The notes beneath the pieces were generated by a model, which saw only the letters and a program-made list of their open reading frames with translations, did not search any database and was not told the DNA's origin. A stretch of DNA of 64,000 nucleotides from an uncultured Eubacteriales bacterium (GTDB lineage Bacteria > Actinomycetota > Coriobacteriia > Anaerosomatales > PHET01): assembly GCA_964607705.1 (NCBI GenBank), contig CAZSLI010000004.1:15750-79749 (forward strand). The letters are read 5' to 3'. This document shows positions 16,972 through 35,040 of this stretch, piece after piece. A program made the position numbers and the translations under genes. How positions within the stretch are numbered: position 1 is the first letter of the stretch; each line of letters begins with the position of its first letter.

Positions 16972-16974
16972 CCG

Positions 16975-17232: not shown

Positions 17233-17319
17233 CGCTCCCCCTCGGATGCGCCGGCGATGACAGGGGCACCGATGATGCACGGAGACGCCGCCGCGCTCAA
17301 TGCAGGAGGCCGATTGATT

Positions 17320-17335
17320 CGTGACGTGCGTCACA
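17320..17335. promoter_or_regulatory. CRP-family binding site
   Basis: CGTGA-cgtgcg-TCACA (1 mismatch) upstream of paralog B. Confidence 0.65.
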
Positions 17336-17378
17336 TCGGACCCATGCGGCACGGTCGACCGAGCGCGAAGCTGCGAAT

Positions 17379-18218: not shown

Positions 18219-18279
18219 TCTGCCTCCTCATCGGGTGGCTCCATCGTACCCGAGAACCGAGGAATCCGCAGGACTCGGA

Positions 18280-19017
18280 CTACTTCAGCGGTGGCTCACC
18301 CGGACTGTAGCTCTCGACGAAGAAGCCGCGCCACGAGGCGACCTTCCACTTCCCGGCGTACTCGGCGATGGGGGTGTCCTGGCGAGACAGGTCGACAACG
18401 AGCACGACGTCGTCGGCTCCTGGCTGACACGAGTCGTAGACGCTGACGAAGGCGCTGTCACCCACGCGTCTCATCGCGTACGCCACCACCTGATGATTGA
18501 GGCCGATCCGGCTCAGGGAGCGCGCGCGAACCAGTCCGAGCGGGACCGGTCCCGACTCCAGGCCCTTGGCCAGAGCCGGCAACTCCTGCTCCCTCGTGAG
18601 CGACCCCACCCCGTCCATCAGGCTTGCTCCAGCCAGGTCAGGCATCACGGTCCATGCCATGAAGCGCAGGCCGTTTTGGACGATGCTGTCGGCGCTGCGC
18701 TCGACGAGATACTCGTCCGGAGCGCCCGAGGAGGAAGCCTCCACTCCCTCGCGGTAGTAGTCGAGGGCTCCGTACGTCATGCCACCGCAGCGCCCCGACA
18801 GAGCACGTTGCACCGCCGGGGTACGCGTATCCGGACGTGGGTTACGGAAAGCGAATCCGTTCCGCGACGGCCGGAAGGACGTGGCGACAGAGAGAGGCAG
18901 TTGCCGAGGCGAGGCCACCGTAGCGGCGGCGGGACCGCCGATGAAGGCGACCAGCGGCAGCACCACCGTGACCAGGAGCGCGACGATGACCGGAGTACGG
19001 CGGGAGGGCGGATGCAC
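18280..19017 (-). CDS. Exported protein, possible papain-like cysteine peptidase
   Basis: N-terminal hydrophobic segment; RCGGM, NHQVVAY and VYDS give a candidate Cys-His-Asp triad. Confidence 0.55.
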   Translation of the reverse strand: MHPPSRRTPVIVALLVTVVLPLVAFIGGPAAATVASPRQLPLSVATSFRPSRNGFAFRNPRPDTRTPAVQRALSGRCGGMTYGALDYYREGVEASSSGAPDEYLVERSADSIVQNGLRFMAWTVMPDLAGASLMDGVGSLTREQELPALAKGLESGPVPLGLVRARSLSRIGLNHQVVAYAMRRVGDSAFVSVYDSCQPGADDVVLVVDLSRQDTPIAEYAGKWKVASWRGFFVESYSPGEPPLK

Positions 19018-19131
19018 GTGAAGGAGCCTTTGCGAGGTTCGCCTTACGTTGTCGCTCTATCCGCGCAAGAAGGAAGCCAAGTCGTCCAGCGGCTGCGGAG
19101 AGTGTCCCCGAGCCGCCGGCACAGACTGGCG

Positions 19132-20463
19132 TCAGTTCGAGCTCGAGCCGCCCGAGGTACCCTGTCCGCCACCCGGGCCACGGCTCGCGCGACCCTTGCC
19201 GCCACGGCGTCCGCTGCGCCTCGACCGACCGTCGCCGCCAGCGCCCTGACCGCCGCCCTTGGCACCGTGTCCGTTGCGCTGTCCGCCGCCACGCTGCTGC
19301 TGCGGCTTGGCCGCCGTCCGCTCAGGATCGGGGACGATGCGCTCCGGCGCATACGCGAAGCCGCTGGCGTCCTCGCAGGAAAGCGGCGCTCCGAGCGTCT
19401 TCTCGATCTCCCTGAGCGTCTCGTGCTCGGTCTCGTCCAGGAAGCTGATCGCCGTTCCACTCGCTCCCGCGCGGGCCGTGCGCCCGATGCGGTGGACGTA
19501 GTCCTCGGCGGTGTTGGGGAGGTCGTAGTTGACGACGTGACTGATCTCGTCGACGTCGATGCCACGCGAGGCTACGTCGGTGGCCACAAGCACCAGATGG
19601 CGGCCTCGCTTGAAGCCCTCGAGGGCCGTCTGACGCTGGCTCTGGCTGCGCCCGCCGTGGATCGCCGAGGAACTGACGCCAGCACGCGAGAGCTGGCGCG
19701 CGAGACGGTCGGCGCGGTGCTTGGTGCGGGTGAAGACGAGCGTGCGCGTGTGGTCGCCCTCGTTGAGCAGGTGCACGAGCAGGTCCGTCTTCTGCGCGCG
19801 GGCCACGGGGTAGAGCGTCTGGTCGATCCGGTCCACAGGCTTGGTGGGCGGCGAGACCTCGACCCGGATGGGGTCGCGGAGGATCGAGTCGACGATCTTG
19901 ATGACCTGGGGGTCCATGGTCGCCGAGAACAACAGGTTCTGGCGGCTCTCCGGTAGCAGGTTCAGAATGCGGCGCACATCCGGCCAGAAGCCCATGTCCA
20001 ACATGCGATCGGCTTCATCGAGCACGACGATCTCCACGCCGGACAGGTCGATCGCGTTACGGCCATGGAGGTCCAACAGGCGTCCCGGGCAAGCGATGAC
20101 GATATCGACGCCGCGGCGGAGCTTCTGGATCTGCGGCTGTATGCCCACGCCGCCGAAGACGACAGCGGCGCGGTGACGCGTCTCTTTGGAGGCATCGCGG
20201 ACGACGTCACCGATCTGTAAGGCGAGCTCCCTCGTAGGGGTGACGACGAGGGTCTTCACGCCCCGCTTCTTGGGAGTGCGCTGAAGCATGGGAAGGACGA
20301 ACGCAGCCGTCTTCCCAGTGCCGGTCTGCGCAACGCCCACGACGTCGCGACCTGCGAGGATCTGCGGGATGGCTTCACGCTGGATGGGGCTGGGTTCGGC
20401 GTAGCCGAGGGCCGCCACGCCTGCAAGCAGGCGCGGCTCGAGGCCGAGGTTCTCGAACGACAA
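19132..20463 (-). CDS. DEAD-box RNA helicase (RhlE-like)
   Basis: Q motif, AQTGTGKT, PTRELA, DEAD, SAT, HRIGRTARAG, Gly/Arg-rich tail; TTG start after AGGAG. Confidence 0.95.
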   Translation of the reverse strand: MSFENLGLEPRLLAGVAALGYAEPSPIQREAIPQILAGRDVVGVAQTGTGKTAAFVLPMLQRTPKKRGVKTLVVTPTRELALQIGDVVRDASKETRHRAAVVFGGVGIQPQIQKLRRGVDIVIACPGRLLDLHGRNAIDLSGVEIVVLDEADRMLDMGFWPDVRRILNLLPESRQNLLFSATMDPQVIKIVDSILRDPIRVEVSPPTKPVDRIDQTLYPVARAQKTDLLVHLLNEGDHTRTLVFTRTKHRADRLARQLSRAGVSSSAIHGGRSQSQRQTALEGFKRGRHLVLVATDVASRGIDVDEISHVVNYDLPNTAEDYVHRIGRTARAGASGTAISFLDETEHETLREIEKTLGAPLSCEDASGFAYAPERIVPDPERTAAKPQQQRGGGQRNGHGAKGGGQGAGGDGRSRRSGRRGGKGRASRGPGGGQGTSGGSSSN

Positions 20464-20635
20464 TGTGTCTCCTGTTTTCTGGGCGCTGCCACGGGGGCGC
20501 GCTCCTTTTGGCAGACGCAGTTGATGTTCTGGCGCGTCTGTCGCAACAGGGACAACTGGGTCTTGGTGTCGGCGCATTGTAGCACCTCGGGTGCCATGAG
20601 GCTTCTCGCAGTCACTGGAGCCCGTCTACGCGGTC

Positions 20636-20651
20636 TGTGACGTGAATCACG
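20636..20651. promoter_or_regulatory. CRP-family binding site
   Basis: TGTGA-cgtgaa-TCACG (1 mismatch) in the divergent helicase/protease intergenic region. Confidence 0.6.
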
Positions 20652-20735
20652 ATGACTCCCTGACGACTTCACAAGTCAGGCGTGAATCGGTCCGAAAACC
20701 GACACAGCAAGTCAATCGCACACTGGGAGAACGCC

Positions 20736-22781
20736 GTGAAAGTCGTACCGCCCCGCCTGCTTTCCTTTCTGCTCGCCACGATCCTCTGCACCGCCTCGCT
20801 CGGCCCTCTCTCTTCGGCAGCCTCAGCCCAGACGGCTGATTCGTCAGTGATCGCGTCGCTCGGAAGGCAGTCGTCCGGCGCCGATGCCGTCTCGCTGATG
20901 GGCGATCGCATCGATGTGGTCGCCGCCGCCCACGGCAAGTCATCGGCCGAACTGAAGCGCGCGCTGAAGGAGGATCGCAGCCTCAAGGTCGACCCCAAGG
21001 GCCACCTCTTCTACGAGGAGGCCGCCCTGCCCGCCGACCTCGCCGCGGCGGCCGCCGAACCCGTCAACCCCTGGGCCGGCGCACTCTTCCCTCTCGATCA
21101 GACATTCAGCCTGCACAGCAAGCCGGGTTCAAAGCGCGTCATCTACATCGACGTGGACGGGCACACGCTCTCGAACACCGCTTGGAACGGCGGCACCGTC
21201 CCCAATCCGCTCGTCTGCACGCCGTGGGACACCGACGGCAATCCCAGCTCGTTCTCCGACGCCGAGCGCACGAAGGTCCAGCAGGTGTGGCAGCGCGTGG
21301 CCGAGGACTACGCCCCCTTCGACGTGGACGTCACCACTCAGGATCCCGGGGCGGCCGCGATGACGCGCGACAGTCTCGCAGACGAGTACTACGGCGTCCG
21401 CGTTCTCATCACGCCGATGAGCAGCTACTTCGGTGGCGCCGGCGGCCGAGCGTTCGTCGGCGTCTTCGACTCGACAGGGGATGCGTACAAGCCGGCGCTG
21501 ATCTTCCCCGAGAAGTTGGCTAACGGTGAGAAGTACGTCGCAGAAGCGTGCTCCCACGAGGCCGGCCACACCCTCGGCCTGCTCCATGACGGAACGACGT
21601 CGGGCGCCGAGTACTACCAGGGCCACGGGACCGGCGAGACCGGCTGGGCGCCCATCATGGGCAGCGGCTACTACAAGCCGGTCACGCACTGGAGCAAGGG
21701 CGAATACCCCCTCGCGAACAACCAGGAAGACGACCTCGCGATCATCAACCAGAACGGCGCCGTCTACCGAGCCGATGACATGGGCGGCTCCTCTGCCACC
21801 CCTCACATGCTGGCAGCGGGCTCCACGCTCTCGTCCCAGGGGGTGATCGAGCGCACGGGAGACGTGGACGTCGTGTCGTTCGCTGCTGGTAGCGGTCCCG
21901 CGACGATCACCGTGCTGCCGGCTCTTCTCGGCGGCGACCTCGATGTGTCGCTTGAGCTGCGCGACGCGTCCGGAGCGCTCGTTGCCAGCGCCAATCCTGC
22001 CGAGACGCTCGGCGCGAGCCTGACGGCGAACCTGAGCGCAGCCACGTACTACCTCTCGGTGACGGGCACCGGCAAGGGCGACCCGCTCAGCACAGGCTAT
22101 TCCGCGTACGCATCCCTCGGCGCGTGGCGGCTCAGCGGCGCCGTGGCCGACCCGGGTGTCGTCGCCCCCGGCCCCAACACCCCGCCTACGGCCGTCATCG
22201 CACAGAGTGGCGCCGGCCCCGCCGCGCCGGTCTCGGTCACTCTCGACGGCTCGGGATCGACGGACCCCGACGGATCCATCGCCTCGTGGGCGTGGGAACT
22301 CGGTGACGGCGGCACGGCGTCCGGCTCCATCGTGACCCACACGTACACCCAGGCCGGCAGGTACACGGTGAGACTGACCGTGACGGATAACCAAGGCGCC
22401 GTCGGGACCGAGACGTATGTCGTGGACGTCCCCGTGCCAGCCGTGCCGAGTATGCACGTGAGTTCCGTGACGATCGCCGTGACGTCGACGAAGTCTGGAA
22501 AGATCGCAAGGGCCATCGTGAAGGTCGTCGACGCACAGGGGGCGCCCGTGAGCGCCGCGACGGTCGTCGGCAGCTGGGGCGGCATCATGACCGGAACGGG
22601 CACAGGAACCACCGGCTCCGACGGGGCCGCCGTCATCACGAAGTCCTTCAAGAAGTCGGGCACCGTGACGTTCGTGGTGTCCCAAGTGTCCAAGGCGGGT
22701 TGGGCGTACGACTCGGCGTCCAACACCAGTGCGAACGCCGCCGCGCTGAGGATCGGGCCTCGCGCTCGAGCGCTCCGTTAG
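20736..22781 (+). CDS. Secreted metzincin zinc metalloprotease with PPC-like and PKD domains
   Basis: Signal peptide, HEAGHTLGLLH, Met-turn APIMG, PKD motif (LDGSGSTDPDG, WELGDG, HTY..AG.Y.V.LTVTD). Confidence 0.88.
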   Translation: MKVVPPRLLSFLLATILCTASLGPLSSAASAQTADSSVIASLGRQSSGADAVSLMGDRIDVVAAAHGKSSAELKRALKEDRSLKVDPKGHLFYEEAALPADLAAAAAEPVNPWAGALFPLDQTFSLHSKPGSKRVIYIDVDGHTLSNTAWNGGTVPNPLVCTPWDTDGNPSSFSDAERTKVQQVWQRVAEDYAPFDVDVTTQDPGAAAMTRDSLADEYYGVRVLITPMSSYFGGAGGRAFVGVFDSTGDAYKPALIFPEKLANGEKYVAEACSHEAGHTLGLLHDGTTSGAEYYQGHGTGETGWAPIMGSGYYKPVTHWSKGEYPLANNQEDDLAIINQNGAVYRADDMGGSSATPHMLAAGSTLSSQGVIERTGDVDVVSFAAGSGPATITVLPALLGGDLDVSLELRDASGALVASANPAETLGASLTANLSAATYYLSVTGTGKGDPLSTGYSAYASLGAWRLSGAVADPGVVAPGPNTPPTAVIAQSGAGPAAPVSVTLDGSGSTDPDGSIASWAWELGDGGTASGSIVTHTYTQAGRYTVRLTVTDNQGAVGTETYVVDVPVPAVPSMHVSSVTIAVTSTKSGKIARAIVKVVDAQGAPVSAATVVGSWGGIMTGTGTGTTGSDGAAVITKSFKKSGTVTFVVSQVSKAGWAYDSASNTSANAAALRIGPRARALR

Positions 22782-23758: not shown

Positions 23759-24115
23759 ATGGACACGGCGATCCTGGTATTCACGGGCTTTCTCTTGGTC
23801 GGCGGGCTACTCGGGGTCATCCTCGTGTCGCTGCCCCGCTGGATGGCGCCGCGCCACCGAAGCGAGCTGAAGTCCAGCGCATACGAATGCGGCGAGCTTC
23901 CCATCGGTGAGCCCTGGATCCGCTTCCGTGTCGCCTACTACGTCTTCGCGCTCGCCTTCGTCGTGTTCGACGTCGAGGCGGTCTTTCTCTACCCGTGGGC
24001 GGTGATCATCCGGCGTCTCGGGATTCCCGGGCTGATCGAGATGGCCGTCTTCGTCGGCATCCTGGTTCTCGGCCTCGCGTATGCGTGGCGCAAGGGGGTG
24101 CTCAAGTGGACGTAG
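23759..24115 (+). CDS. nuoA: NADH-quinone oxidoreductase subunit A
   Basis: YECGE, YYVFALAFVVFDVEAVFLYPW, WRKGVLKW; alternative start at 23726. Confidence 0.95.
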   Translation: MDTAILVFTGFLLVGGLLGVILVSLPRWMAPRHRSELKSSAYECGELPIGEPWIRFRVAYYVFALAFVVFDVEAVFLYPWAVIIRRLGIPGLIEMAVFVGILVLGLAYAWRKGVLKWT

Positions 24116-24603
24116 AGGACAAGAGCGGCATTCTCGTCGCTCCTCTCCAACAGGTCATGAACTGGGCCCGCGGTCACTCCATGTGGCCGCTGACATTCGG
24201 CACGGCCTGCTGCGCCATCGAGATGATGAGCTGCGGCTCCCCCCGTTACGACACAGACCGCTTCGGCATCTTCTTCAGGAACTCTCCGCGCCAGGCAGAC
24301 TGCATGATCGTGGCTGGCACCATCAACCTGAAGATGGTGCCTCGGATGAAGCTGCTCTACGAGCAGATGGCGGAGCCCAAGTACGTCATCGCCATGGGCT
24401 CGTGCGCGATCGGCGGAGGACCATTCTCGTTCGGCTACAACGTCGTCAACGGTGTGGACCAAGTCATCCCGATCGACATCTACGTGCCGGGATGCCCGCC
24501 TCGGCCAGAAGCGCTCATCCACGCGCTGCTAACGCTCATGGAGAGGAACGCTGCCGGCGAACCATCGGCTGCCGAGCGTTTCGCGCAGGAGGCTGCACTG
24601 TGA
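24106..24603 (+). CDS. nuoB: NADH-quinone oxidoreductase subunit B
   Basis: FGTACCAIEMM, SPRQAD, MGSCAIGGG, YVPGCPPRPEAL. Confidence 0.95.
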   Translation: MDVEDKSGILVAPLQQVMNWARGHSMWPLTFGTACCAIEMMSCGSPRYDTDRFGIFFRNSPRQADCMIVAGTINLKMVPRMKLLYEQMAEPKYVIAMGSCAIGGGPFSFGYNVVNGVDQVIPIDIYVPGCPPRPEALIHALLTLMERNAAGEPSAAERFAQEAAL

Positions 24604-26309
24604 CGCACGCAGCCCCGACCTCCGCCCTGGCCGTAGGCGCGCTCGAGGACGTTTCCGCCACCGAGCGCGGATGCGTGACCCCAGGCGGCATGCCATACGC
24701 CGTGGTGACAGCAGAGGAGTTGCCGAGTAGCGCGCGAGCCCTTCTCGACCATGGGTTCGGCCATCTGGCTCTCGTCACCGCCGTCGAACGCGTTCCTCTC
24801 GCCGAGGAGGCTGGCTCCGATTCAACGGCATCGTCGGTGGACGAGCCGGGACTCGACCTCATCTACGTGCTGACCCGAAGGTCCGACTCGGCCCGCGTGA
24901 TGCTCCGGGTGCGGCTCGTCGACTCCGACCTCGCGGTGCCGTCACTCACGCCGCTCTGGTCCGGCGCCCACGCCCTGGAGCGCGAGGTCTACGACCTCTT
25001 CGGCGTCATGTTCGTCGGTCACCCTGACCTCAAGCGGATCGTGCTGCGCGACGACTTCGAAGGCCACCCACTGCGCAAGTCGTTCGCCATGGGCGAGCAC
25101 GGAGTGACCGCCGAGCAGGTCGCCGAAGCCGTGAAGGACCATGGGGACAAGAACAACCGGCCCGCGGAGCACTCTCCTCTCATCGAGGGGCGGCTACCGG
25201 GCGATCCCCTCCTGCACTCAGAGCGGCTCATCCTCAACGTCGGCCCGCAACACCCGAGCACCCACGGCGTCTTGCACGTCTGGCTGGCGCTCGACGGCGA
25301 GAACGTGGTCGCTTCGGAGCCGACGCACGGCTACCTTCACCGCTGCATCGAGAAGCTCGCGGAATCTCGCAACTACCGAGCGAACATCGCACTGCTCGAC
25401 CGGTGTGACTACGTGTCCGGTTTCCACACGGAGCTCGCCTACATGCTGGCGCTCGAAGAGCTCGCCGGCGTCGAGAGCACTCCCAAGGCCGACTTCATAC
25501 GCGTCCTCATGAGCGAGCTGGTCCGCATCACCAGCCACCACACGTGGCTAGCTGCCTGCGGCCTGGACACCGGCGCCCTCACGCCCTTCCTCTACGCGTT
25601 CATCGACCGCGAGAAGATCCTCGACTTCTTCGAGATCGTCACCGGCGGTCGTATGATGTTCAACTACTTCCGTCCGGGCGGAGTGAAGGACGATCTGCCG
25701 CCTGGTGCTGCCGAGGACCTTCGTCGCTATCTGTTGACCTTCGAGAAGCAGGTGGACGAGTACGAGTCACTCCTTACCGCCAACGAGATCTTCCGCTACC
25801 GCGTCCGCGGCGTAGGCGTCCTCCCCCCGTCGACGATCGAGAGTTACGGGGTGACAGGTCCACTCGCGCGGGCATCCGGTGTCGACATCGACCTGCGTCG
25901 CGATGACCCGTACTCGGCGTACGACCGGTTCAAGGTGAACGTCCCTATCGCTCAGGCTGGTGACACCTTCGACCGCTACGTCGTGCGTATCGCGGAGATG
26001 CGCGAGTCCGCGCGCCTCGCCCTCGCCTGCCTGGACGGCATGCCCGAGGGCCCGTATCTCAATCCCGACGTACCAAGGATCTTGCGACCACCGGTCGGCG
26101 AGGCCTACCGCGAGGTCGAGAGCCCCCGGGGAGAGCTCGGCGTCTATCTGGCGAGCGACGGATCGGCCCAGCCGTGGCGGCTGAAGGTCCGCTCGCCTGC
26201 TCTATCGAATCTGCATGTTGCGCCCGAGATGCTGCGCGGCACCAAACTCGGCGACGTCGTCGCGGTCCTCGGCTCGGTGGACGTGGTCATGGGAGAGATC
26301 GACCGGTGA
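24600..26309 (+). CDS. nuoCD: Fused NADH-quinone oxidoreductase subunit C/D
   Basis: EREVYDLFG, GHPLRK, GPQHPSTHGVL, GYLHRCIEK, DVVMGEIDR; no Ni-binding CxxC pairs. Confidence 0.95.
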   Translation: MTHAAPTSALAVGALEDVSATERGCVTPGGMPYAVVTAEELPSSARALLDHGFGHLALVTAVERVPLAEEAGSDSTASSVDEPGLDLIYVLTRRSDSARVMLRVRLVDSDLAVPSLTPLWSGAHALEREVYDLFGVMFVGHPDLKRIVLRDDFEGHPLRKSFAMGEHGVTAEQVAEAVKDHGDKNNRPAEHSPLIEGRLPGDPLLHSERLILNVGPQHPSTHGVLHVWLALDGENVVASEPTHGYLHRCIEKLAESRNYRANIALLDRCDYVSGFHTELAYMLALEELAGVESTPKADFIRVLMSELVRITSHHTWLAACGLDTGALTPFLYAFIDREKILDFFEIVTGGRMMFNYFRPGGVKDDLPPGAAEDLRRYLLTFEKQVDEYESLLTANEIFRYRVRGVGVLPPSTIESYGVTGPLARASGVDIDLRRDDPYSAYDRFKVNVPIAQAGDTFDRYVVRIAEMRESARLALACLDGMPEGPYLNPDVPRILRPPVGEAYREVESPRGELGVYLASDGSAQPWRLKVRSPALSNLHVAPEMLRGTKLGDVVAVLGSVDVVMGEIDR

Positions 26310-27433
26310 GCGTACTGAAGATACTCATCGGCATCGTCGCGATCGTGTTGGTCGTTCTCATCAACACGATCATCGTCATGTGGTGCGAGCGTAAGTGGCT
26401 CGGTCACATGCAGTCCCGTCAGGGGCCCCTCCGCACGGGCTGGCATGGAGTCATCCAGCCGTTCGCCGATGCGATCAAGCTCCTCGGCAAGGAAGACCTT
26501 GTGCCGAACGGCTCCGATCGCGTGCTGTTCCTCGTCGCACCGCTCATCGCGTTCACGCCGTCCATCCTCGTCTACGCAGCCACCCCATGGGTCGAGTCGT
26601 TCACCGGCTCGTCCTCGGACACGGGCATCTTCATGGTCTTCGCCATCGCGGCGCTCTTCCCGGTGGGGATCCTCGTGGCCGGGTGGGCCTCCCACAACAA
26701 GTACGCGCTCTTCGGCGGCTTCAGGGCGGCTTCTCAGCAGATCAGCTATGAAGTCCCGATGCTCCTCGCGCTGATGGGCGTGGTCATGTTGGCCGGCTCG
26801 ATGAACATGGGCCGGATCGTTGACGCCCAGGCGACGTGGTGGAACGTCGTCACCCAGCCATTCGCATTCCTACTCTTCTTCATCGGGATGCTTGCGGAAC
26901 TCAACCGCACGCCGTTCGACATGCCCGAGGCAGAATCGGAGTTGGTGGCCGGCTTCAACGTCGAGTACTCGTCGATGCGTTTCGCACTCTTCTTCGTCGC
27001 CGAGTACGTGAACGTGTTCACGTGGGCCCTCTTCACCACCGTGCTGTTCCTGGGCGGGTGGAACGGGCCGCTGTTGCCGGACTGGGCGTGGCTGTTCCTC
27101 AAGACCTATCTCGTCGTGTTCCTGATCATCTGGGTGCGGGCCACCTTCCCGCGCGTGCGGGTCGACCAGCTCATGGCACTCGGGTGGAAGGTGCTTCTGC
27201 CGGCGGCGCTGATCAACCTACTGCTGACCGCCTTCGGAGTCGTGACCAACGTGGCCGTGCTCGTGGTGCTCGAGTTCGCCGCCGCAGCGGCGTTCGTCGC
27301 AGTCATCGCCTATCTGGGTCGCCACGCGGGCGACAAGGAACGGACGACGGCGAAGGAGTCGCACGCCACGCATCATGCGCGCGCCAAAGATGCCGTGCTC
27401 ATCGCCGCCGAGTCCGAGGGGGCGGTCGTGTGA
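26306..27433 (+). CDS. nuoH: NADH-quinone oxidoreductase subunit H
   Basis: ERK, QPFADAIKLLGKE, QQISYE, ELNRTPFDMPEAESELV, RATFPR. Confidence 0.95.
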   Translation: MSVLKILIGIVAIVLVVLINTIIVMWCERKWLGHMQSRQGPLRTGWHGVIQPFADAIKLLGKEDLVPNGSDRVLFLVAPLIAFTPSILVYAATPWVESFTGSSSDTGIFMVFAIAALFPVGILVAGWASHNKYALFGGFRAASQQISYEVPMLLALMGVVMLAGSMNMGRIVDAQATWWNVVTQPFAFLLFFIGMLAELNRTPFDMPEAESELVAGFNVEYSSMRFALFFVAEYVNVFTWALFTTVLFLGGWNGPLLPDWAWLFLKTYLVVFLIIWVRATFPRVRVDQLMALGWKVLLPAALINLLLTAFGVVTNVAVLVVLEFAAAAAFVAVIAYLGRHAGDKERTTAKESHATHHARAKDAVLIAAESEGAVV

Positions 27434-27882
27434 TCGGCATGGCGAAGGGGATGTTGACCACCCTCAAGCACGCCTTCCGGCCGGCGTTCACGACGCGCTA
27501 TCCCTGGGGGCCCGTTACCCTCCCCGAACGCAGTCGGACGTCGTTCGCTCTCCCACTCGGCGAAGACGGTCTCCCGCTGTGCAAGGCATGCAACCTCTGC
27601 GCGAAGAGCTGTCCTGATGCAGCGATCGTGCTCGAATCGGAGAAGCGCGCCGACGGACCGGGCCGGGTGCTCACGTCGTTCAAGATCGATCTCGGCCTGT
27701 GCATGTACTGCGGCATCTGCGTCGAGAACTGCCCGTCCTCGGGACTTCATCACACCGGTGACTTCGAGACTGCCACGCACCTGAGGGATGACACGATGCT
27801 CGTGTTGTTCGAGGCCCCGGGCGCGACTGCCCCCGCCGAGGACTCGGCCGGCAAGGCACCCGTCGCAGAGGAGGCGTCATGA
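27430..27882 (+). CDS. nuoI: NADH-quinone oxidoreductase subunit I
   Basis: CKACNLCAKSCP and CMYCGICVENCP. Confidence 0.95.
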   Translation: MIGMAKGMLTTLKHAFRPAFTTRYPWGPVTLPERSRTSFALPLGEDGLPLCKACNLCAKSCPDAAIVLESEKRADGPGRVLTSFKIDLGLCMYCGICVENCPSSGLHHTGDFETATHLRDDTMLVLFEAPGATAPAEDSAGKAPVAEEAS

Positions 27883-28385
27883 CGCTCACGGGCGTGCTCT
27901 TCTACGTCTATGCGGCGGTAGCCCTCGCCGGCGCTGTGGGCCTCGTCATGGCGCCCAAGCTCATCCACGCCGTCATGTGCATGTTCGCGACGATGTTCTC
28001 CATCGCCGCCCTCTACCTGCTACTGGGCAGCGAGTTTCTCGCAGCCATGCAGCTCTTCGTCTACGGCGGCGCGATCACCGTGCTCGTCCTGTTCGTGCTG
28101 ATGCTCACGCGACCGACCGAAGGCGCCGAGTCGGCCCCACCGGTCAGGTGGTTCGCCGCAGCCCTGTGCCTCGTGTTCTTCGGCGTGCTCGCCACGACCT
28201 TGGGCCGCGCCGAGTGGCAGGTCGCCGCAAGCCACGCGCACGACGCGGCCTCTCTCGGCGAGATCCTCTTCTCTCGCTACGCCCTCCCCTTCGAGATAGC
28301 CGGCCTCGCGCTCACTATCGCGCTCATCGGCGCCATAGTGCTCGCTCGTGAGGACGACATGGCGGAGGAGGTGGCCGAGTCATGA
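27879..28385 (+). CDS. nuoJ: NADH-quinone oxidoreductase subunit J
   Basis: QLFVYGGAITVLVLFVLML, PFEIAG. Confidence 0.93.
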   Translation: MTLTGVLFYVYAAVALAGAVGLVMAPKLIHAVMCMFATMFSIAALYLLLGSEFLAAMQLFVYGGAITVLVLFVLMLTRPTEGAESAPPVRWFAAALCLVFFGVLATTLGRAEWQVAASHAHDAASLGEILFSRYALPFEIAGLALTIALIGAIVLAREDDMAEEVAES

Positions 28386-28690
28386 TCGGCCTCAACCACT
28401 ACCTCGTGCTGGCCGCGGCGCTCTTCTGCATCGGTCTGTACGGTGCGCTCACGTCGAAGAGCGCACTGCGCGTGGTCATCTGCGTCGAGCTCGTGCTGAA
28501 CGCCGTGAACCTGAATCTGGCGGCCTTCTCGGTGTATATCGCTCCGCGTGAAGCGGTCGGCATGAACTTCGTCATCTTCCTGATGGTGGTAGCAGCGGCC
28601 GAGGTCGGCCTGGCACTGGCGCTCATCATCACGCTCAACCGATCGAGCGACATCAGTCGCATCGACAGCATCAGCAGGTTGAGGGGATAG
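28382..28690 (+). CDS. nuoK: NADH-quinone oxidoreductase subunit K
   Basis: ICVELVLNAVNLN, VAAAEVGLALA. Confidence 0.95.
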   Translation: MIGLNHYLVLAAALFCIGLYGALTSKSALRVVICVELVLNAVNLNLAAFSVYIAPREAVGMNFVIFLMVVAAAEVGLALALIITLNRSSDISRIDSISRLRG

Positions 28691-28692
28691 CG

Positions 28693-30618
28693 ATGAACCT
28701 GATGCACTACAGCTGGACGCTTCCCCTCGTTCCTCTGGCTGTCTTCGTCTTCGTGGTGGCGACCGGCCGCAAGTCGCCGAGGATGGTGGCGCCGGTCCTC
28801 GGCATCGCTGCCCAGGCGGTGGTCTTCGCGGCCTCGGTCGGGATGCTCGTCGCGACGAGCGCCGGAGCGACCTACGAAGCGTCAACGACGTGGCTGCGGG
28901 TCGGCGAGAAGACGATCGAGTTCGGCGTGCTCATCGACCCGCTCTCCGCCACGATGATCGCCATCGTCTCGTTCGTGAGCATGCTCGTGCAGCTGTACTC
29001 CATCGGCTACATGTCGGAGGAGGAGCGCTTCCGCTGGTTCTACGGTGCCATCTCCCTGTTCACGGCGGCGATGCTCGGAGTGGTCATCTCCAACGGCTGG
29101 CTGCTGATGTACATGAGCTGGGAGGTCATGGGCCTCGCGAGCTACCTCTTGATCGGCTTCTGGTACGAGGACCCCAACGCTCCCCCCGCGTCTATGAAGG
29201 CGTTCTTGGTCACGCGCTTCGGCGACGTGGGATTCGGGCTCGCACTCGTCCTCATGTGGCTCACGGTGGGCTCGTTCACCTTCAGCGTCGTGTTCGAGGC
29301 CGTCGAGTCGGGTGCATGGGTCGGTGCGTCGCTCGCCGCTTGTGCACTGCTCTTGTTCGCGGGCGCCATGGGCAAGAGCGCCCAGTTCCCGCTCCACGTC
29401 TGGCTACCGGACGCCATGGCCGGTCCGACGCCCGGCTCGGCGCTCATCCATGCAGCCACCATGGTGGCCGCCGGCGTCTACCTCGTAGCGCGCTCGTTCC
29501 CGCTCTACGAGGCCGCCGAGTGGACACTCGGCGTCGTGGGGACCGTGGGGACGATCACCGCGGTCATGGGGGCACTCATCGCGCTCTCGATGCATGACAT
29601 CAAGAAGGTTCTCGCGTACTCCACCATCTCGCAGTTGGGCTACATGTTCCTCGCGTTGGGCACGGGCAACTGGGTCGCGGCCGTGTTCCATCTGATGACG
29701 CACGCCTTCTTCAAGGCGCTGCTCTTCCTCGCGGCCGGGTCTGTGATCCATGCCACGCACACTCAGGACCTCCACGAACTCGGGGGCCTGTGGCGCAAGA
29801 TGCCGTGGACGACGGCGACCTGGTGTCTCGGGGCCCTTTCGCTGGCCGGCATTCCCCCGCTCGCGGGCTTCTGGAGCAAGGACGAGATTCTCCTTTCCGC
29901 ATTCAACAACGGGGACTGGGGCTTCTTGATCGCCGGTCTGGCGACGGCCGCGCTCACCGCCTTCTACATGGCGCGCGCGACCTTCCTGACATTCTTCGTC
30001 AAGCCGGGGCCACAGAGCCAAAGCGAACATGCACACGAAGCGCCCTGGGTCATGACGGTCCCGCTGGCTGTACTTGCTGGACTCGCGGTGACCGTCGGAC
30101 TCGTGGGTTCGCCGGCCACCGGGTATGCGTTCGGCGGGTTCCTCGGCGAGCATGAGGCCGCGGACCCGAACCTGATCCTCGCGGGTGTCGCTGTGGGCGT
30201 CGCCGTCGCCGGCATCCTGCTCGCTTGGTCGAGTTACATCAGACGCCTGTTCGAACCGGACGGCTACTTCCGCACGCGGCTCGTCTCAAAGGTCTTCGAG
30301 CGCAAGTTCTGGATGGACGAGATATATAGCCTGTTCGTCGTCGACCCCACCAAGGCCATTTCCGAGTTCGCGCGCAAGGTCGACCACACTGTGATCGACG
30401 GAGTTGTCCGAGGGCTCGGCTGGGTGGGCCTCAACGTCAGTGCGATGCTGGCATGGATCGACCGTGAGGCGGTCGATGGCACGCTGGTCGATGGCCTCGG
30501 GGAGACGGTCGCCGAGTCAGGCGAGATCGTTCGGCAGGTGCACTCAGGCAACGTCCAGACCTACCTGCTCCTCCTGGTCGTCGGCATCGTGGTCCTCGCG
30601 GTGGTGTTCGCCCGATGA
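28693..30618 (+). CDS. nuoL: NADH-quinone oxidoreductase subunit L with extended lateral helix
   Basis: WEVMG, GKSAQFPLHVWLPDAMAGPTP, HAATMV, THAFFKALLF, GFWSKDEI. Confidence 0.95.
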   Translation: MNLMHYSWTLPLVPLAVFVFVVATGRKSPRMVAPVLGIAAQAVVFAASVGMLVATSAGATYEASTTWLRVGEKTIEFGVLIDPLSATMIAIVSFVSMLVQLYSIGYMSEEERFRWFYGAISLFTAAMLGVVISNGWLLMYMSWEVMGLASYLLIGFWYEDPNAPPASMKAFLVTRFGDVGFGLALVLMWLTVGSFTFSVVFEAVESGAWVGASLAACALLLFAGAMGKSAQFPLHVWLPDAMAGPTPGSALIHAATMVAAGVYLVARSFPLYEAAEWTLGVVGTVGTITAVMGALIALSMHDIKKVLAYSTISQLGYMFLALGTGNWVAAVFHLMTHAFFKALLFLAAGSVIHATHTQDLHELGGLWRKMPWTTATWCLGALSLAGIPPLAGFWSKDEILLSAFNNGDWGFLIAGLATAALTAFYMARATFLTFFVKPGPQSQSEHAHEAPWVMTVPLAVLAGLAVTVGLVGSPATGYAFGGFLGEHEAADPNLILAGVAVGVAVAGILLAWSSYIRRLFEPDGYFRTRLVSKVFERKFWMDEIYSLFVVDPTKAISEFARKVDHTVIDGVVRGLGWVGLNVSAMLAWIDREAVDGTLVDGLGETVAESGEIVRQVHSGNVQTYLLLLVVGIVVLAVVFAR

Positions 30619-32078
30619 CCACGGTCCCGGTGCTCTCGGTCATCACGCTCACGCCGGTCGTCGCGGCCGTGCTCATCGCCGTGTTCGGCCGCGGCCGGAG
30701 TCCTCGGTACATCGCGCTCGCTGCTGCCTCCATCTGCCTTGGCTCGGCCGTGTGGGTCTACTTCAGCTACGACCGCGTCGCGTCGGGATTCCAGTTCGTC
30801 GAGTCGATGCCGTGGATCCCGTCGCTGGGAGTGGGGTACCTGGTCGGCGTCGACGGCATCTCGGTCCCCATGCTGATGCTGATGGGCCTCGTGATGTTCA
30901 CCGGCGTGCTGGTCAGCTGGGACCTCCAGGAGCGGACGCGCGAGTTCTTCGTGCTGTTGCTGCTGCTCGTAACGGGCGTCTTCGGTGTGTTCGTGTCTCT
31001 CGACGCGTTCCTGTTGTTCTTCTTCTACGAGATGGCCGTTCTTCCGATGTACCTGCTCATCGCGATCTGGGGGTCCACGAAGAAGGACTACTCGGCGATG
31101 AAGCTGACGCTCTTCCTGTTCGCGGGAAGCGCCGCCATCGTGCTCGCCCTCGTGTTCGTCTACTGGCAGGTCGGCGCGAACTCGTTCGACCTGCGTGTCT
31201 GGGCCGCGTACGACTTCCCCGCCGAGTTCCAGCGGTGGGCGTTCCTGGTGCTGTTCCTCGGCTTCGGAGCACTCGTGCCAATCTTCCCGCTCCACACGTG
31301 GTCGCCCGACGGCCACGTCGCGGCGCCCACCGCCGTCTCGATGATGCACGCCGGCGTGCTACTCAAGATCGGCGCGTTCGGCGTGATCCGGTTGGGGATG
31401 TGGCTCTTCCCTCAGGGCATCACCGACTGGGCCTACCTGATCGCGATCGTCGGCTGCATCAACGTCGTCTACGGCGCCCTGTGCGCCATGAACCAGACTG
31501 ACCTCAAATACGTCATCGGCTACTCCTCGGTCAGCCACATGGGTTACGTCCTGCTGGGGCTGGCGATGCTCGACCGCTTCGGCATCGAGGGAGCGGTCTT
31601 TCAGATGTTCGCGCACGGCATCATGACCGCACTGTTCTTCGCGCTCATCGGCTACGTCTACGAAAAGGCGCACACGCGCCAGATCGCCGAGATATCGGGC
31701 CTGATGCGCAAGACGCCTCTGGTCGCCGCAGCGTTCATCATCGCAGCCGCAGCCAGCATGGGTCTGCCGTCGACCAGCGGCTTCGTCGCGGAGCTGTTGG
31801 TGTACATCGGGATGATCCAGCAGGAGCCCATTCTCGCCGTCATCGCGTTCATCGGCGTCGTCGTCACCGCCGCCTACCTCGTCCGGATGCTCGGCAAGAT
31901 CCTGCTGGGCGAGCCGTCCGAGTCGGTCGCCGCGATCTCGGACCCGCGGCCACTACGCCTTGCGCCCATGGGGATGCTGGCCGTGACGATCATGGTCGTC
32001 GGGCTCAACCCGGCCATGCTCTATGGCACCATCCGGGCCGGCGTCATCCCGCTCGTCACCAAGCTGGCGGGGGGCTGA
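30615..32078 (+). CDS. nuoM: NADH-quinone oxidoreductase subunit M, copy 1
   Basis: FFFYEM, PLHTWSPDGHVAAPT, HAGVLLKIG, YSSVSHMG, GFVAE. Confidence 0.92.
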   Translation: MTTVPVLSVITLTPVVAAVLIAVFGRGRSPRYIALAAASICLGSAVWVYFSYDRVASGFQFVESMPWIPSLGVGYLVGVDGISVPMLMLMGLVMFTGVLVSWDLQERTREFFVLLLLLVTGVFGVFVSLDAFLLFFFYEMAVLPMYLLIAIWGSTKKDYSAMKLTLFLFAGSAAIVLALVFVYWQVGANSFDLRVWAAYDFPAEFQRWAFLVLFLGFGALVPIFPLHTWSPDGHVAAPTAVSMMHAGVLLKIGAFGVIRLGMWLFPQGITDWAYLIAIVGCINVVYGALCAMNQTDLKYVIGYSSVSHMGYVLLGLAMLDRFGIEGAVFQMFAHGIMTALFFALIGYVYEKAHTRQIAEISGLMRKTPLVAAAFIIAAAASMGLPSTSGFVAELLVYIGMIQQEPILAVIAFIGVVVTAAYLVRMLGKILLGEPSESVAAISDPRPLRLAPMGMLAVTIMVVGLNPAMLYGTIRAGVIPLVTKLAGG

Positions 32079-32081
32079 TAG

Positions 32082-33551
32082 ATGCCCGAAGCCATGACTT
32101 GGATGCGCTATCTGGCTCCCGAGATGATCGTCGCCCTCACGGGTGTGGTCCTGATCGTCGCCGATCTCATCTGGCCGATGCGCGAGGACTGCCGTCACAG
32201 AGGTCGGCCGTGGATCGCCTACCTCGGGATAGCGGGCCTTGTCGCCGCAGCCGTGGCCACCGTGATGACCGGCGCGCCGTCCGGCGGCGTCGCGCTCTTC
32301 GGCGGCATCATCCTCATCGACCAACTGGCTGTGTTCTTCAAGGTGCTGTTCCTCGGGATCGGGGTCATCGTCCTGCTCATCGCGGTCGACCCCCTCCCCG
32401 TGTTCAGCAAGTGGCCTGCGGAGTTCTACGCACTGGTGGTGTGGTGCACGCTCGGCCACATGCTCCTCTCCTCGGCGGGCGAGCTGTTCACCATCTTCCT
32501 GTGCCTGCAGCTCACCAGCCTGCCTCTGATCGTGCTCATCGGCTACGCCAAGCGTGATGTCCGCAGCGGTGAGGCGTCGCTCAAGTACCTGCTCCTCGTG
32601 CTCGTCTCGACTGCGGTACTGCTCTACGGGATGTCGCTCATCTACGGGGCGCTCGGCACGAGCACCATCTCTGAGATAGGGACGCTGCTGGAGCAGCAGT
32701 CCGAAGTGACCACGGTCGTGGCGCTCGGCCTCGTGCTGCTGCTCACAGGGTTCGCGTTCAAGATCACCGCGTTCCCCTTCCAATACTGGGTGCCCGACGT
32801 GTACCAAGGCGCCCCCACCCCCGTGACCGCCTTCCTGTCGGTGGGCTCCAAGTTCGCAGGATTCGCCCTCGCCCTGCGTATCATCGTCACGGGGCTGCAG
32901 ATCGACCTGAACTGGCATCTCATCTTCGGGGCGCTGGCGGCGCTGTCGATGACGTTCGGCAACCTCGGCGCGATCAAACAGACCAACATCAAGCGCATGC
33001 TCGCCTACTCCGGTATCGCTCAGGCCGGGTATCTGCTCGTCGGGCTGGCGGCGCTCTCTGCTTCGGGCATCGGCGCCCTGCTCTTTTACGCCGTCGCCTA
33101 CACCGCCGCGAACCTGGCGGCGTTCGGCGCGATCATCGTGTTCGCGCAGCAGACCGGTTCCGAGGAGATCGCCGACTACGACGGCCTTGCCCGCCGAGCT
33201 CCCCTCGTCGCCCTCGCGCTGACGGTCGCGCTGCTTTCCTTGGGCGGACTGCCGCTCATGGCAGGCTTCATGGCGAAGTTCTACGTCTTCCTGTACGCCG
33301 CGCTGGCCGGGCTCTTCTGGCTCGTCGCGATCGGCGTGGCGAACGGCGTCATCGCGCTCTACTACTACCTGCGGGTCGTCTGGCACATCTACGTCGCCGA
33401 GGACAAGACCTCGGGCGCCGAGCTCCGTCTCGCACCGCGTGCGGGCATCGCCCTGTCGCTCTGCGTCGTGGGCATCTTCGCGATCGGACTGTTCCCGCAG
33501 CCGTTGTTCGACGCCAGCCAGCGGGCCGCGGCCGCGCTATTCGGCGGCTGA
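32082..33551 (+). CDS. nuoN: NADH-quinone oxidoreductase subunit N
   Basis: GEASLKY, FKITAFPF..WVPDVYQGAPT, KRMLAYSGIA, GFMAKF. Confidence 0.95.
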   Translation: MPEAMTWMRYLAPEMIVALTGVVLIVADLIWPMREDCRHRGRPWIAYLGIAGLVAAAVATVMTGAPSGGVALFGGIILIDQLAVFFKVLFLGIGVIVLLIAVDPLPVFSKWPAEFYALVVWCTLGHMLLSSAGELFTIFLCLQLTSLPLIVLIGYAKRDVRSGEASLKYLLLVLVSTAVLLYGMSLIYGALGTSTISEIGTLLEQQSEVTTVVALGLVLLLTGFAFKITAFPFQYWVPDVYQGAPTPVTAFLSVGSKFAGFALALRIIVTGLQIDLNWHLIFGALAALSMTFGNLGAIKQTNIKRMLAYSGIAQAGYLLVGLAALSASGIGALLFYAVAYTAANLAAFGAIIVFAQQTGSEEIADYDGLARRAPLVALALTVALLSLGGLPLMAGFMAKFYVFLYAALAGLFWLVAIGVANGVIALYYYLRVVWHIYVAEDKTSGAELRLAPRAGIALSLCVVGIFAIGLFPQPLFDASQRAAAALFGG

Positions 33552-33567
33552 GAGGAAGGAGGGCCGC

Positions 33568-35040
33568 ATGACTGACGCAAGCATCCTGTTGCTCACCATC
33601 CTCGTGCCGCTCGTCGGGGCGGTCGTCATCGGCGCACTGCCCATGTCGCTCGAGCGGCTGGCTCGTCCAGCGGCCATCGGAGTATCGGGATTGGTGCTGG
33701 TGGCGTGCGGGCGCCTGTGGATAGCGTTCGACTCGGCGGCCCAAGGCATGCAGTTCGAGTACGTGCGCGACTGGATTCCCGGGCTGGGCACGAGCCTGCA
33801 TCTCGGCGTTGATGGACTCTCGTTGCCGCTGGTGGCACTGACGGCGCTGCTGACGGTTCTGGCTTGCGTGGCGTCCAAGTCGGTGACGGACCAGCGCCGA
33901 CAGTACTTCACTCTGCTATTGCTGCTCGAGGCCGGCCTGATAGGCGTCTTCGTCGCCTTGGACCTCGTGCTCTTCTACGTCTTCTGGGAAGTCGTTCTGA
34001 TCCCGATGTTCTTCCTGATCAGCGTCTGGGGCGGGCCGCGCCGGTCGTACGCGTCGGTCAAGTTCTTCGTGTACACGCTTGCGGGCTCGCTCGCCATGCT
34101 CGGCGGCATCATCACGCTGTATCTCGCGACCGGTGCGACATCGTTCGATCTTATCGGCCTGCAAGCCGCAGCCGGGGGACTCGCCCCCGCACTTCAGCTC
34201 GGGATCTTCCTCGCGATGGCATTCGCGCTCGCGGTCAAGGTTCCCATCGTGCCGTTCCACACCTGGCTTCCCGATGCCCATGTGGAGGCGCCGACAGCCG
34301 TTTCGGTCCTGCTGGCCGGCGTTCTGCTCAAGATGGGCTCGTACGGGTTCATCCGGCTTGGCCCGCAGCTCCTGCCCGAAGGATTCAAGGCAGTCTCCCC
34401 TGTGCTGGCGGTGCTCGCGGTCGTCTCGATCGTCTACGGCGCCGCTGTCGCACTACGGCAGACCGACCTCAAGAAGCTCGTCGCCTACTCCTCGGTATCG
34501 CACATGGGCTACGTCATGCTCGGAATAGCGGCCGGCACTACCGCCGGCATCCTGGGAGCCGGTGTGCAGATGGTGTCTCACGGGCTGATCGCCGGCATGG
34601 CGTTCCTGCTTGTCGGGGCGCTCTACGAGCGCGCACATACGCGGGAGATGCAGGCCTTCGGCGGCATCGTGAAGGTCGCGCCTGTCCTCGGCGGCATGCT
34701 GGTCCTGATGGCGTTCGCCTCGCTCGGGCTTCCCGGCATGAGCGGCTTCATAGGCGAGTTCATGATCGTCACGGGGTCATTCTCAGCGTATCAGTGGATC
34801 TCGGTCATCGCTGCCACGGCCGTGGTGCTGACCGCCGCCTACCTGCTTTGGATGTTGCGCCGCGTGGTGTTCGGCCGACTCAACGAGGAGCGGCTCGAGA
34901 TGCCCGACATGACCGCCACCGAGGCGTGGGCGATCATGCCGCTCGCGGCCGCGACCTTGATCATCGGCATCTTCCCGCAGACGCTTGCGGGTGTCATGCA
35001 GGCGAGCGTGCAGGCGGTCGTCACGGCTCTGGGCGGCTAA
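33568..35040 (+). CDS. nuoM: NADH-quinone oxidoreductase subunit M, copy 2
   Basis: FYVFWE, AVKVPIVPFHTWLPDAHVEAPT, GVLLKMG, GFIGE; own AGGAAGGAGG RBS. Confidence 0.93.
   Translation: MTDASILLLTILVPLVGAVVIGALPMSLERLARPAAIGVSGLVLVACGRLWIAFDSAAQGMQFEYVRDWIPGLGTSLHLGVDGLSLPLVALTALLTVLACVASKSVTDQRRQYFTLLLLLEAGLIGVFVALDLVLFYVFWEVVLIPMFFLISVWGGPRRSYASVKFFVYTLAGSLAMLGGIITLYLATGATSFDLIGLQAAAGGLAPALQLGIFLAMAFALAVKVPIVPFHTWLPDAHVEAPTAVSVLLAGVLLKMGSYGFIRLGPQLLPEGFKAVSPVLAVLAVVSIVYGAAVALRQTDLKKLVAYSSVSHMGYVMLGIAAGTTAGILGAGVQMVSHGLIAGMAFLLVGALYERAHTREMQAFGGIVKVAPVLGGMLVLMAFASLGLPGMSGFIGEFMIVTGSFSAYQWISVIAATAVVLTAAYLLWMLRRVVFGRLNEERLEMPDMTATEAWAIMPLAAATLIIGIFPQTLAGVMQASVQAVVTALGG

Follow-up and report, generated by a model that had tools for sequence, protein, structure and literature searches.

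Introduction

A form of complex I that carries two NuoM subunits, 2M complex I, is reportedly the subject of a 2018 paper by Chadwick, Hemp, Fischer and Orphan (ISME J 12:2668), which is said to place it in clades of Nitrospira, Chloroflexota and Thaumarchaeota and to claim multiple origins for it in its title. Here we describe an eleven-gene complex I operon, nuoA-B-CD-H-I-J-K-L-M1-N-M2, that occupies positions 23759-35040 (plus strand) of a 64-kb stretch of contig CAZSLI010000004.1 from an uncultured Coriobacteriia-like bacterium. We refer to the whole of this 64-kb stretch as the window and use its numbering throughout. Judged by gene content, the window operon is a further example of the already described 2M complex I, in Coriobacteriia-like bacteria.

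As cited in two studies, the genomic criteria for a 2M enzyme are a second nuoM gene and an insertion of approximately 26 residues in the amphipathic helix of NuoL (PMC9040806, PMC6606698). Both features are present in the window, as an initial annotation of this DNA had proposed: M1 and M2 each pass the NuoM model TIGR01972, and NuoL contains an extra helix unit that takes the form of a tandem repeat. The likeness extends to the canonical NADH module, which is missing or altered in Nitrospira clade 3 and thaumarchaeal clade 2 as it is here, and to the pairing of one canonical NuoM with one that lacks the lysine of transmembrane helix 7 (TM7). We refer to the latter as a K-less NuoM and write it as m in gene orders. 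The same pairing is found in the 2M clusters L021 and L027 (Nitrospira), L051 (Chloroflexota), and L047 and L075 (Verrucomicrobiota). In contrast, the window has the order L-m-N-M, whereas every other 2M cluster that we retrieved has the order L-M-m-N, which is also the type described for the Chloroflexi (PMC7117926). The window differs further in its fused nuoCD gene, in a glutamine at the TM5 position of NuoN that is confined to its lineage, and in its actinobacterial host.

Other described enzymes share a part of these features. Complex_I_3 of Candidatus Manganitrophaceae and the rhizobial 'green' complex I resemble the window enzyme in having more antiporter-like subunits and a 26-residue insertion in the clamp helix, but in those enzymes NuoL is replaced by two MrpD-like subunits to give five pumps in total, whereas the window NuoL is normal (PMC9040806). 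The same study reports 26-residue insertions in NuoL for clusters without an extra M as well (PMC9040806). The eleven-subunit enzymes of Dehalococcoidia, Bacteroidota and related genomes, which lack nuoE, nuoF and nuoG (EFG-less clusters), are likewise without an N-module, and their single NuoM is K-less, is 47-51% identical to M1, and provides the best matches to M1 outside the window lineage. Unlike the window, they combine a single M with a short NuoL helix (an anchor distance, as defined below, of 47-48 residues), separate nuoC and nuoD genes, and a NuoN with the TM5 glutamate. Finally, the first cultured strains of OPB41/Anaerosomatales carry EFG-less nuo loci of eleven consecutive proteins, for which ferredoxin was suggested as the electron donor; a second M is not mentioned in that paper (PMC9686372). 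Cultured members include Anaerosoma tenue M08DHB and Parvivirga hydrogeniphila Es71-Z0120, with eleven-gene nuo loci under MCK8114634-44 and MCL4079286-96.

Results and Discussion

Two different NuoM subunits in an operon without an NADH module

The nuoM1 gene (30615..32078, plus strand) overlaps nuoL by an ATGA and encodes a protein of 487 amino acids that scores 469 bits on TIGR01972, for which the cut-off is 263.8. The nuoM2 gene (33568..35040, plus strand) encodes 490 amino acids, scores 574.7 bits on the same model, and contains both PF01059 and PF00361 domains. The two proteins are 38% identical. Alignment of M1 with E. coli NuoM (3rko_M) and with 8qby_M places Leu220 (codon 31272-31274) at the position of K234, the TM7 lysine, while E144, K265, H322, H348 and E407 are kept (E. 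coli numbering; the TM5 glutamate, the TM8 lysine, two histidines and the TM12 glutamate). M2 is of the canonical type; none of its six channel residues (E, K, K, H, H and E) is missing, and it has the TM5 glutamate/TM7 lysine pair (E144/K234 in E. coli) that M1 does not. Across the five loci of the window lineage that were compared, identity is 65-76% for M1, 61-74% for M2, 63-76% for L and 63-74% for N. Since both M genes are conserved like L and N and keep their channel residues save for the TM7 lysine of M1, both look functional.

The absence of the TM7 lysine is not peculiar to M1. In an alignment of 101 NuoM and NuoN sequences, 19 NuoM proteins carry leucine or isoleucine at this position, and these 19 form a single clade in 88 of 100 neighbour-joining bootstraps calculated with the TM7 column removed. 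The sister group of M1 is K-less in 100 of 100 bootstraps, and M1 and M2 are sisters in none of the 100. These values, together with the 38% identity, rule out a recent tandem duplication of M. The K-less clade consists of three groups, namely the sole M of EFG-less eleven-gene clusters (from MAGs, or metagenome-assembled genomes, labelled Dehalococcoidia, Bacteroidetes and others), the M1 of the window lineage, and the N-adjacent M of the L-M-M-N clusters, which in our set are the five Nitrospira, Chloroflexota and Verrucomicrobiota clusters named above. In every 2M cluster that we examined, a single canonical M is combined with a single K-less M, and K-less M genes adjoin nuoN in all cluster types that we saw.

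When a metagenome scan was seeded with M1, it recovered seven window-lineage loci together with more than 70 others at 47-51% identity. Each of these others has the order L-m-N and a short NuoL helix (47-48 residues from anchor to anchor), and those that reach far enough upstream read A-B-C-D-H-I-J-K-L-m-N. In a pooled sample, which is biased by this M1-seeded scan, a K-less M occurs in none of 17 clusters that contain nuoE, nuoF and nuoG and in 33 of approximately 50 EFG-less single-M clusters. Loci in which a K-less NuoM is the sole M of an EFG-less cluster include L003, L007, L017, L040, L045, L048, L060, L063, L066, L080 and L095-L167. We found no discussion of a K-less NuoM subfamily in the accessible literature.

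Open reading frames and NCBIfam and Pfam matches for every gene support the order A-B-CD-H-I-J-K-L-M1-N-M2 and the lack of nuoE, nuoF and nuoG, both of which the initial annotation had claimed. Because nuoH begins 4 nt ahead of the nuoCD stop codon, nuoE, nuoF and nuoG cannot fit between nuoD and nuoH. Likewise, tblastn searches of the whole 64-kb window with queries from related loci found no homologue of NuoE, NuoF, NuoG or an F-like flavoprotein and returned generic short 4Fe-4S matches only. Neither the operon nor the window thus holds the NuoE, NuoF and NuoG subunits of the canonical 14-subunit NADH:quinone oxidoreductase.

The lateral helix of NuoL is built from 26-residue units

The nuoL gene (28693..30618, plus strand) encodes a protein of 641 amino acids of the long-helix type. 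It scores 641.6 bits on NF005141, for which the cut-off is 556, and the match ends at residue 576 of 641. An AlphaFold2 model of NuoL has a mean predicted local distance difference test score (pLDDT) of 86.3, and in this model DSSP assigns residues 540-617 (30310..30543, plus strand) to one unbroken helix of 78 residues, which is the predicted lateral (amphipathic) helix. The last transmembrane helix follows at residues 620-640. Within the lateral helix, a first repeat copy, SEFARKVDHTVIDGVVRGLGWVGLNV, spans residues 557-582 (30361..30438, plus strand) and a second copy, SAMLAWIDREAVDGTLVDGLGETVAE, spans residues 583-608 (30439..30516, plus strand). The motif VDHTVIDGVVRGLG begins at residue 563 (nt 30379) and IDREAVDGTLVDGLG begins at residue 589 (nt 30457), so that, as first noted in the initial annotation, the two are exactly 78 nt, or 26 amino acids, apart.

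The two copies in the window NuoL match at approximately 6 of 14 motif residues, with a one-residue indel, and are identical at 32 of 78 nucleotides; at that level the nucleotide sequence is uninformative, and we discarded it as evidence for a repeat. Given this weak similarity within the protein, a single sequence proves little, and the case rests on other proteins. When profiles of copy 1 and copy 2 were built from 83 homologues and compared with each other, hhalign gave a probability of 98.2% and an E value of 5e-14. The lone helix motif of cyanobacterial NdhF1 (6hum_F) and that of Thermus Nqo12 (4he8_L) align to copy 1; the match of copy 2 is the motif of Mycobacterium NuoL (8e9g_L). Past the aligned motif, 32 residues remain in Thermus Nqo12 compared with 59 in the window NuoL.

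We also measured the anchor distance, defined as the number of residues between two conserved NuoL positions, which are Y545 and G619 in the window protein. Among approximately 195 NuoL proteins this distance is 47-49 in 61, 72-76 in 129, 99 in two and 151 in one; two more proteins have odd values. Because the distances take few values, the helix grows stepwise, by one 26-residue unit per step. The window NuoL has an anchor distance of 74 as opposed to 47-49 in the short type, and the surplus corresponds to the second helix unit. On the strength of these alignments, the helix duplication is real and the NuoL repeat is old. At 1.5 Å per residue, the additional 26 residues are calculated to make the helix approximately 39 Å longer than in solved three-pump enzymes. 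A comparison of the copies across lineages, as a check on single versus repeated origin, gave BLOSUM scores of 25.6 for copy 1 against copy 1, 26.9 for copy 2 against copy 2, and 22.8 and 26.1 across copies, with just 15 residues compared.

Longer helices exist. Two NuoL homologues, P0077 and P0092, contain three helix repeats (anchor distance 99, 670-673 amino acids). In L168, where a three-repeat NuoL lies at 492-2513, the C-terminal end of another L-like gene precedes it, and a NuoN-like gene with glutamine at the TM5 glutamate position (GIQLTSVPL) follows directly; the contig is 3.6 kb long. A 713-amino-acid NuoL-like protein with approximately five helix repeats and an anchor distance of 151 (P0103, at L087:10001-12142) is encoded by a solitary gene flanked by an Rnf cluster and by V-type ATPase genes. 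The same locus has a NuoB-like gene and a GltD-like flavoprotein gene approximately 5 kb away and a NuoN-like gene at its edge.

The relation of helix length to the number of M genes was examined in 80 loci of a species-level genome collection, chosen among the matches listed by NuoL similarity alone. Two-M operons are present in 5 of the 20 long-helix loci that are readable downstream and in none of 50 short-helix loci (Fisher p = 0.0013). From this sample, a long helix looks necessary for a two-M operon and is insufficient for one, and the general link between two-M operons and a long helix holds across phyla.

Relatives and history of the operon

The nearest homologues of the window NuoL, at 63-77% identity, are all approximately 640 amino acids long and belong to MAGs of uncultured Coriobacteriia or Coriobacteriales. 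A search of the species-level collection with a NuoL alignment gave a best locus, among the matches listed, of 45% identity, and the closer relatives came from the metagenome scan and from a search of homologue contigs. The complete arrangement A-B-CD-H-I-J-K-L-m-N-M occurs at six loci (L081, L082, L085, L092, L169 and L170), and L088 and L093 show its L-m-N-M or m-N-M end. The CD fusion is common to L081, L082, L085, L169 and L170. The genes that flank the operon differ between loci of the lineage.

Outside this lineage, the closest relatives by bit score of the window A, CD, H, K, L and M2 are in L086 and L083, and a NuoL tree from which the helix region was left out places L083 as the sister of the window clade, with L086 next. 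Both loci are from MAGs of uncultured Actinobacteria and have the order A-B-C-D-(E)-F-G-H-I-J-K-L-M-N. They share the duplicated helix (73 residues) with the window, and an HtrA-like protease, a SPOUT methyltransferase and ArgS are chromosomal neighbours common to L083, L086 and the window-lineage locus L170. Unlike the window, L086 retains E-F-G as its input module and L083 a GltD-like flavoprotein with G; both have separate C and D genes and one canonical M, with no second M and no K-less M within 10 kb. The NuoN of the window has the same bit scores, approximately 290-330, to the N of K-less clusters and to that of L086, so it may or may not have arrived together with M1. At the NuoF position of L083 (3134-5095) lies a 653-amino-acid protein with NADH_4Fe-4S, Fer4_20 and Pyr_redox_2 (GltD-like) domains and not Complex1_51K, which suggests that the input module there is non-standard.

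Given the affinity of the backbone to L083/L086 and the neighbours shared with L170, the simplest history starts from a single-M ancestor with a long helix. The backbone would have come from an L-M-N operon like that of L083/L086, the input-module genes would have been lost, nuoC and nuoD would have fused, and a K-less M would have been gained. M2 is probably the original M of the operon. This reverses the initial annotation, which took the gene after nuoN to be the added one: M2 is canonical and has its best match in the M of the sister operons, and M1 is the foreign type. The accompanying suggestion of a separate origin in this actinobacterial lineage remains plausible but is weakly resolved; the M1/M2 pair itself combines two old paralogues and is no local duplication. 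The 2M clusters are scattered in the NuoL and M trees, which fits multiple origins, but the deep branches of these neighbour-joining trees lack resolution.

Judged from its nuo genes, the window lineage looks related to the cultured OPB41/Anaerosomatales strains. The G+C content of those strains, up to 67.65%, is similar to that of the window (PMC9686372), and cluster look-ups gave no accession that links any of the homologues to them, while a look-up of the window NuoL itself gave no record. The lineage holds a compact, self-contained eleven-gene version of the 2M enzyme, and its apparent kinship to cultured strains would allow direct tests.

Some of the loci carry more than one cluster. In L170, a second nuo-like cluster with K, a long-helix L, a canonical M and N (16800-21926, minus strand) is convergent with the 2M operon and lies directly after it. 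In L012 and L019 (Candidatus Udaeobacter and Terriglobia MAGs), the long-helix L-M-N operon has behind it another L-M-N set, which is convergent and lies on the opposite strand.

A probable four-pump enzyme and its alternatives

On balance, we consider it rather probable that the operon encodes an EFG-less eleven-gene complex I in which four antiporter-like subunits (L, M2, M1 and N) use a low-potential electron donor to move an extra proton. In such an enzyme, L, M2, M1 and N would lie in one membrane arm beneath a NuoL helix made of two 26-residue docking units, and their physical order would likely be L-M2-M1-N because M1-type genes adjoin nuoN in every cluster type seen. Since the operon has no N-module, the donor is most naturally taken to be something other than NADH. 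A low-potential carrier, most plausibly ferredoxin, would donate electrons at NuoI/NuoB, and these would pass to menaquinone, with approximately one more proton moved per two electrons than in a three-pump enzyme. It would be equally possible for the enzyme to run in reverse, with proton-motive force reducing the low-potential carrier. The same mechanism has been proposed for 2M enzymes (PMC6606698, PMC9040806). By our own estimate from standard potentials, the transfer of electrons from ferredoxin (approximately -450 mV) to menaquinone (approximately -75 mV) gives approximately 72 kJ per two electrons, which should be enough for four protons and, at no more than a modest proton-motive force, for five. 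The conserved operon and channel residues lend indirect support to the placement of both M subunits in one complex, which would have four proton channels and a higher ratio of protons to electrons.

Several observations weigh against such an enzyme, and the first group concerns the helix. A long helix is combined with L-M-N alone in the nearest outgroups L083 and L086, in L084 (Limnochorda pilosa AP014924.1, a complete genome) and in the second cluster of L170. Approximately 15 loci besides these have a long helix and a single M, and such operons are found in MAGs of Zixibacteria, Ignavibacteria, Terriglobia, Candidatus Udaeobacter, Acidimicrobiia and Actinomycetota and in a Melioribacter genome. 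Because long helices are present in single-M operons, helix length alone is no proof of a fourth subunit. The initial annotation had named the presence of this duplication in relatives with one NuoM as evidence against its reading; since the closest single-M outgroups share the duplication, the argument that it arose for M2 in this lineage falls. Single-M operons with long helices therefore pose a testable puzzle for the coupling of pumps through the lateral helix and the charged axis. In the AlphaFold2 model, moreover, the block-mean pLDDT drops from the 80s to the low 50s in the lateral helix and is approximately 50-60 in its second half.

A second group of such observations concerns the channels and the donor. 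The TM7 lysine that M1 lacks is functionally important in E. coli NuoM, as known from mutagenesis. In NuoN, alignment to 6hum_B shows Gln143 (codon 32508-32510) in place of the TM5 glutamate, the equivalent of E. coli E133, and the TM7, TM8 and TM12 lysines are kept. Glutamate occupies this position in 128 of 136 aligned NuoN proteins and glutamine in 8, all of which belong to the window lineage (the window, L081, L082, L085, L088, L091, L092 and L093); this glutamine may affect how NuoN couples to NuoK or to the M beside it. One or both of these altered channels, in M1 and NuoN, may work differently or may not pump. As for the donor, its identity as ferredoxin is itself an inference from gene content, and the neighbours of the operon show no ferredoxin-docking subunit or input module, although no search aimed at NdhS, NdhV, NdhO or FpoF was made. 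In the accessible literature there is no biochemical or structural evidence for any 2M enzyme, none having been purified or solved, and the extra-proton and ferredoxin claims made for this class rest wholly on gene content.

That long helices are common beside a lone M, with the sister operons L083 and L086 and the additional cluster of L170 among the examples, is what would be expected if the complex always held three antiporter-like subunits, with M1 and M2 serving as alternative isoforms in the manner of cyanobacterial NdhD/NdhF swaps and with the long helix simply inherited and unrelated to the number of M genes. It is consistent with this arrangement that each type of M can be the sole M of a cluster, the K-less form in 33 EFG-less clusters and the canonical form elsewhere. 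The cyanobacterial variants, however, are encoded in separate loci and regulated separately, whereas M1 and M2 lie in one tight operon with no internal terminator-like site and therefore no obvious means of differential expression. The M1/M2 pair is, in addition, conserved throughout the window lineage, and, across phyla, none of the 50 short-helix loci has a two-M operon. We therefore regard the exchange of isoforms as unlikely. A different possibility is that M2 merely rides on the nuo transcript and acts outside complex I, alone or with other partners, in Mrp-like cation/proton exchange or DabB-like CO2 hydration. Mrp and DAB systems do contain PF00361 proteins, and nuoM2 comes last in the operon, with 16 nt and no overlap between it and nuoN. 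Against this, the 575 bits of M2 on TIGR01972 are far above its score on any Mrp model, it has PF01059, an N-terminal domain specific to NuoM, and the M-specific TM12 glutamate, its closest relative is the in-operon M of the sister clusters, and no DabA or Mrp partner gene is adjacent to it in the window or in its relatives. These family scores and absent partner genes rule out M2 as an Mrp- or DAB-type protein, and a role outside complex I seems to us highly improbable.

The last alternative leaves the four-pump architecture as it is and differs in direction only, the enzyme running mainly in reverse so that proton-motive force drives electrons from menaquinol to ferredoxin for anabolic or CO2-fixing enzymes. 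Such a role has been proposed for 2M enzymes, including those of Nitrospira (PMC6606698, PMC12342949, PMC9040806), and the cultured OPB41 Coriobacteriia show lithoautotrophic growth and depend on pyruvate:ferredoxin oxidoreductase (PMC9686372). By our own estimate, the transfer from menaquinol to ferredoxin costs approximately 70 kJ per two electrons, which is marginal with four protons and feasible with five. The window, however, gives no sign of direction, and an anaerobe that makes reduced ferredoxin from pyruvate could equally use the forward direction. We hold mainly reverse operation to be a serious possibility, if a somewhat unlikely one.

A bolder extension of the four-pump enzyme can be drawn from the stepwise growth of the helix. 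The helix may be a modular ruler whose number of 26-residue docking units (1, 2, 3 or approximately 5 copies) sets the number of M modules, in which case single-M operons with a long helix would recruit an unlinked fourth module and the arm of the window enzyme would be rewired. The rewiring would consist in a K-less M and a NuoN without the TM5 glutamate being joined to a canonical M, with an order or a coupling unlike that of three-pump and L-M-m-N enzymes; for example, the arm might follow the gene order and place M2 rather than N beside NuoK. We offer the ruler and the rewired arm, taken together, as speculation that is distinctly unlikely to be right as a whole.

Remaining genes of the operon and its surroundings

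Family models identified each of the other core subunits of the membrane arm and the Q-module (A, B, C, D, H, I, J, K and N). Start codons were refined after the first open reading frame calls, and most junctions are 4-nt overlaps (GTGA or ATGA) or gaps of a few bases. The nuoA gene (23759..24115, plus strand, as are all genes of the operon) encodes 118 amino acids, the length of its homologues in L081, L082, L084 and L085; it matches PF00507 (E = 1.9e-36), and its ATG start was confirmed. The nuoB gene (24106..24603) begins with a confirmed GTG within a 10-nt overlap with nuoA and encodes 165 amino acids, which score 233 bits on NF005012 (cut-off 116); the four cysteines expected for cluster N2 are present in its translation (CCxxE, GSC, GCPP). 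The fused nuoCD gene (24600..26309, 569 amino acids) overlaps nuoB by a GTGA and has PF00329 and PF00346 on one open reading frame, with scores of approximately 420-435 bits on NuoD models. It is followed by nuoH (26306..27433), the 375-amino-acid product of which scores 352 bits on NF004741 (cut-off 305), and by nuoI (27430..27882), which starts with the GTG of a GTGA overlap, encodes approximately 150 amino acids with two CxxCxxCxxxCP motifs, and matches TIGR01971 (E = 1.2e-27) and Fer4_7. With its N2 cysteines, its NuoI motifs and a NuoD part that scores as NuoD, the Q-module (NuoB, CD, I and H) looks intact.

Among the smaller membrane subunits, nuoJ (27879..28385) encodes 168 amino acids that match NuoJ models with E = 1.3e-34, and nuoK (28382..28690) encodes 102 amino acids that score 81.7 bits on NF004320 (cut-off 57) and keep both membrane glutamates. 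The nuoN gene (32082..33551) encodes 489 amino acids with 370 bits on TIGR01770 (cut-off 332.6). In the 16 nt between the nuoN stop and the nuoM2 ATG, a strong Shine-Dalgarno sequence, GGAAGGAGG, lies at 33554..33562 (plus strand), 5 nt before the ATG, and a promoter and terminator scan found no terminator-like site in this gap. Overall, the sites returned by that scan were no commoner than expected by chance or in shuffled sequences.

The larger open reading frames on both sides of the operon are housekeeping genes, encoding a deacetylase, DegV, a DEAD helicase and a PKD protein upstream and GatB, a GatA-like amidase, an ABC1 kinase and LigA downstream. Two minus-strand regions of the window, 60391-60792 and approximately 46228-46506, gave ferredoxin-like 4Fe-4S matches to the Fe-S parts of NuoF/NuoG (E = 1.7e-6 and 7.6e-4) and may be ferredoxin genes; at 11-25 kb from the operon, their positions give no evidence of linkage to it. 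A GGDEF diguanylate cyclase gene at 51263-52303 (plus strand) has a weak rubrerythrin-like match in the N-terminal part of its product (E approximately 1e-4).

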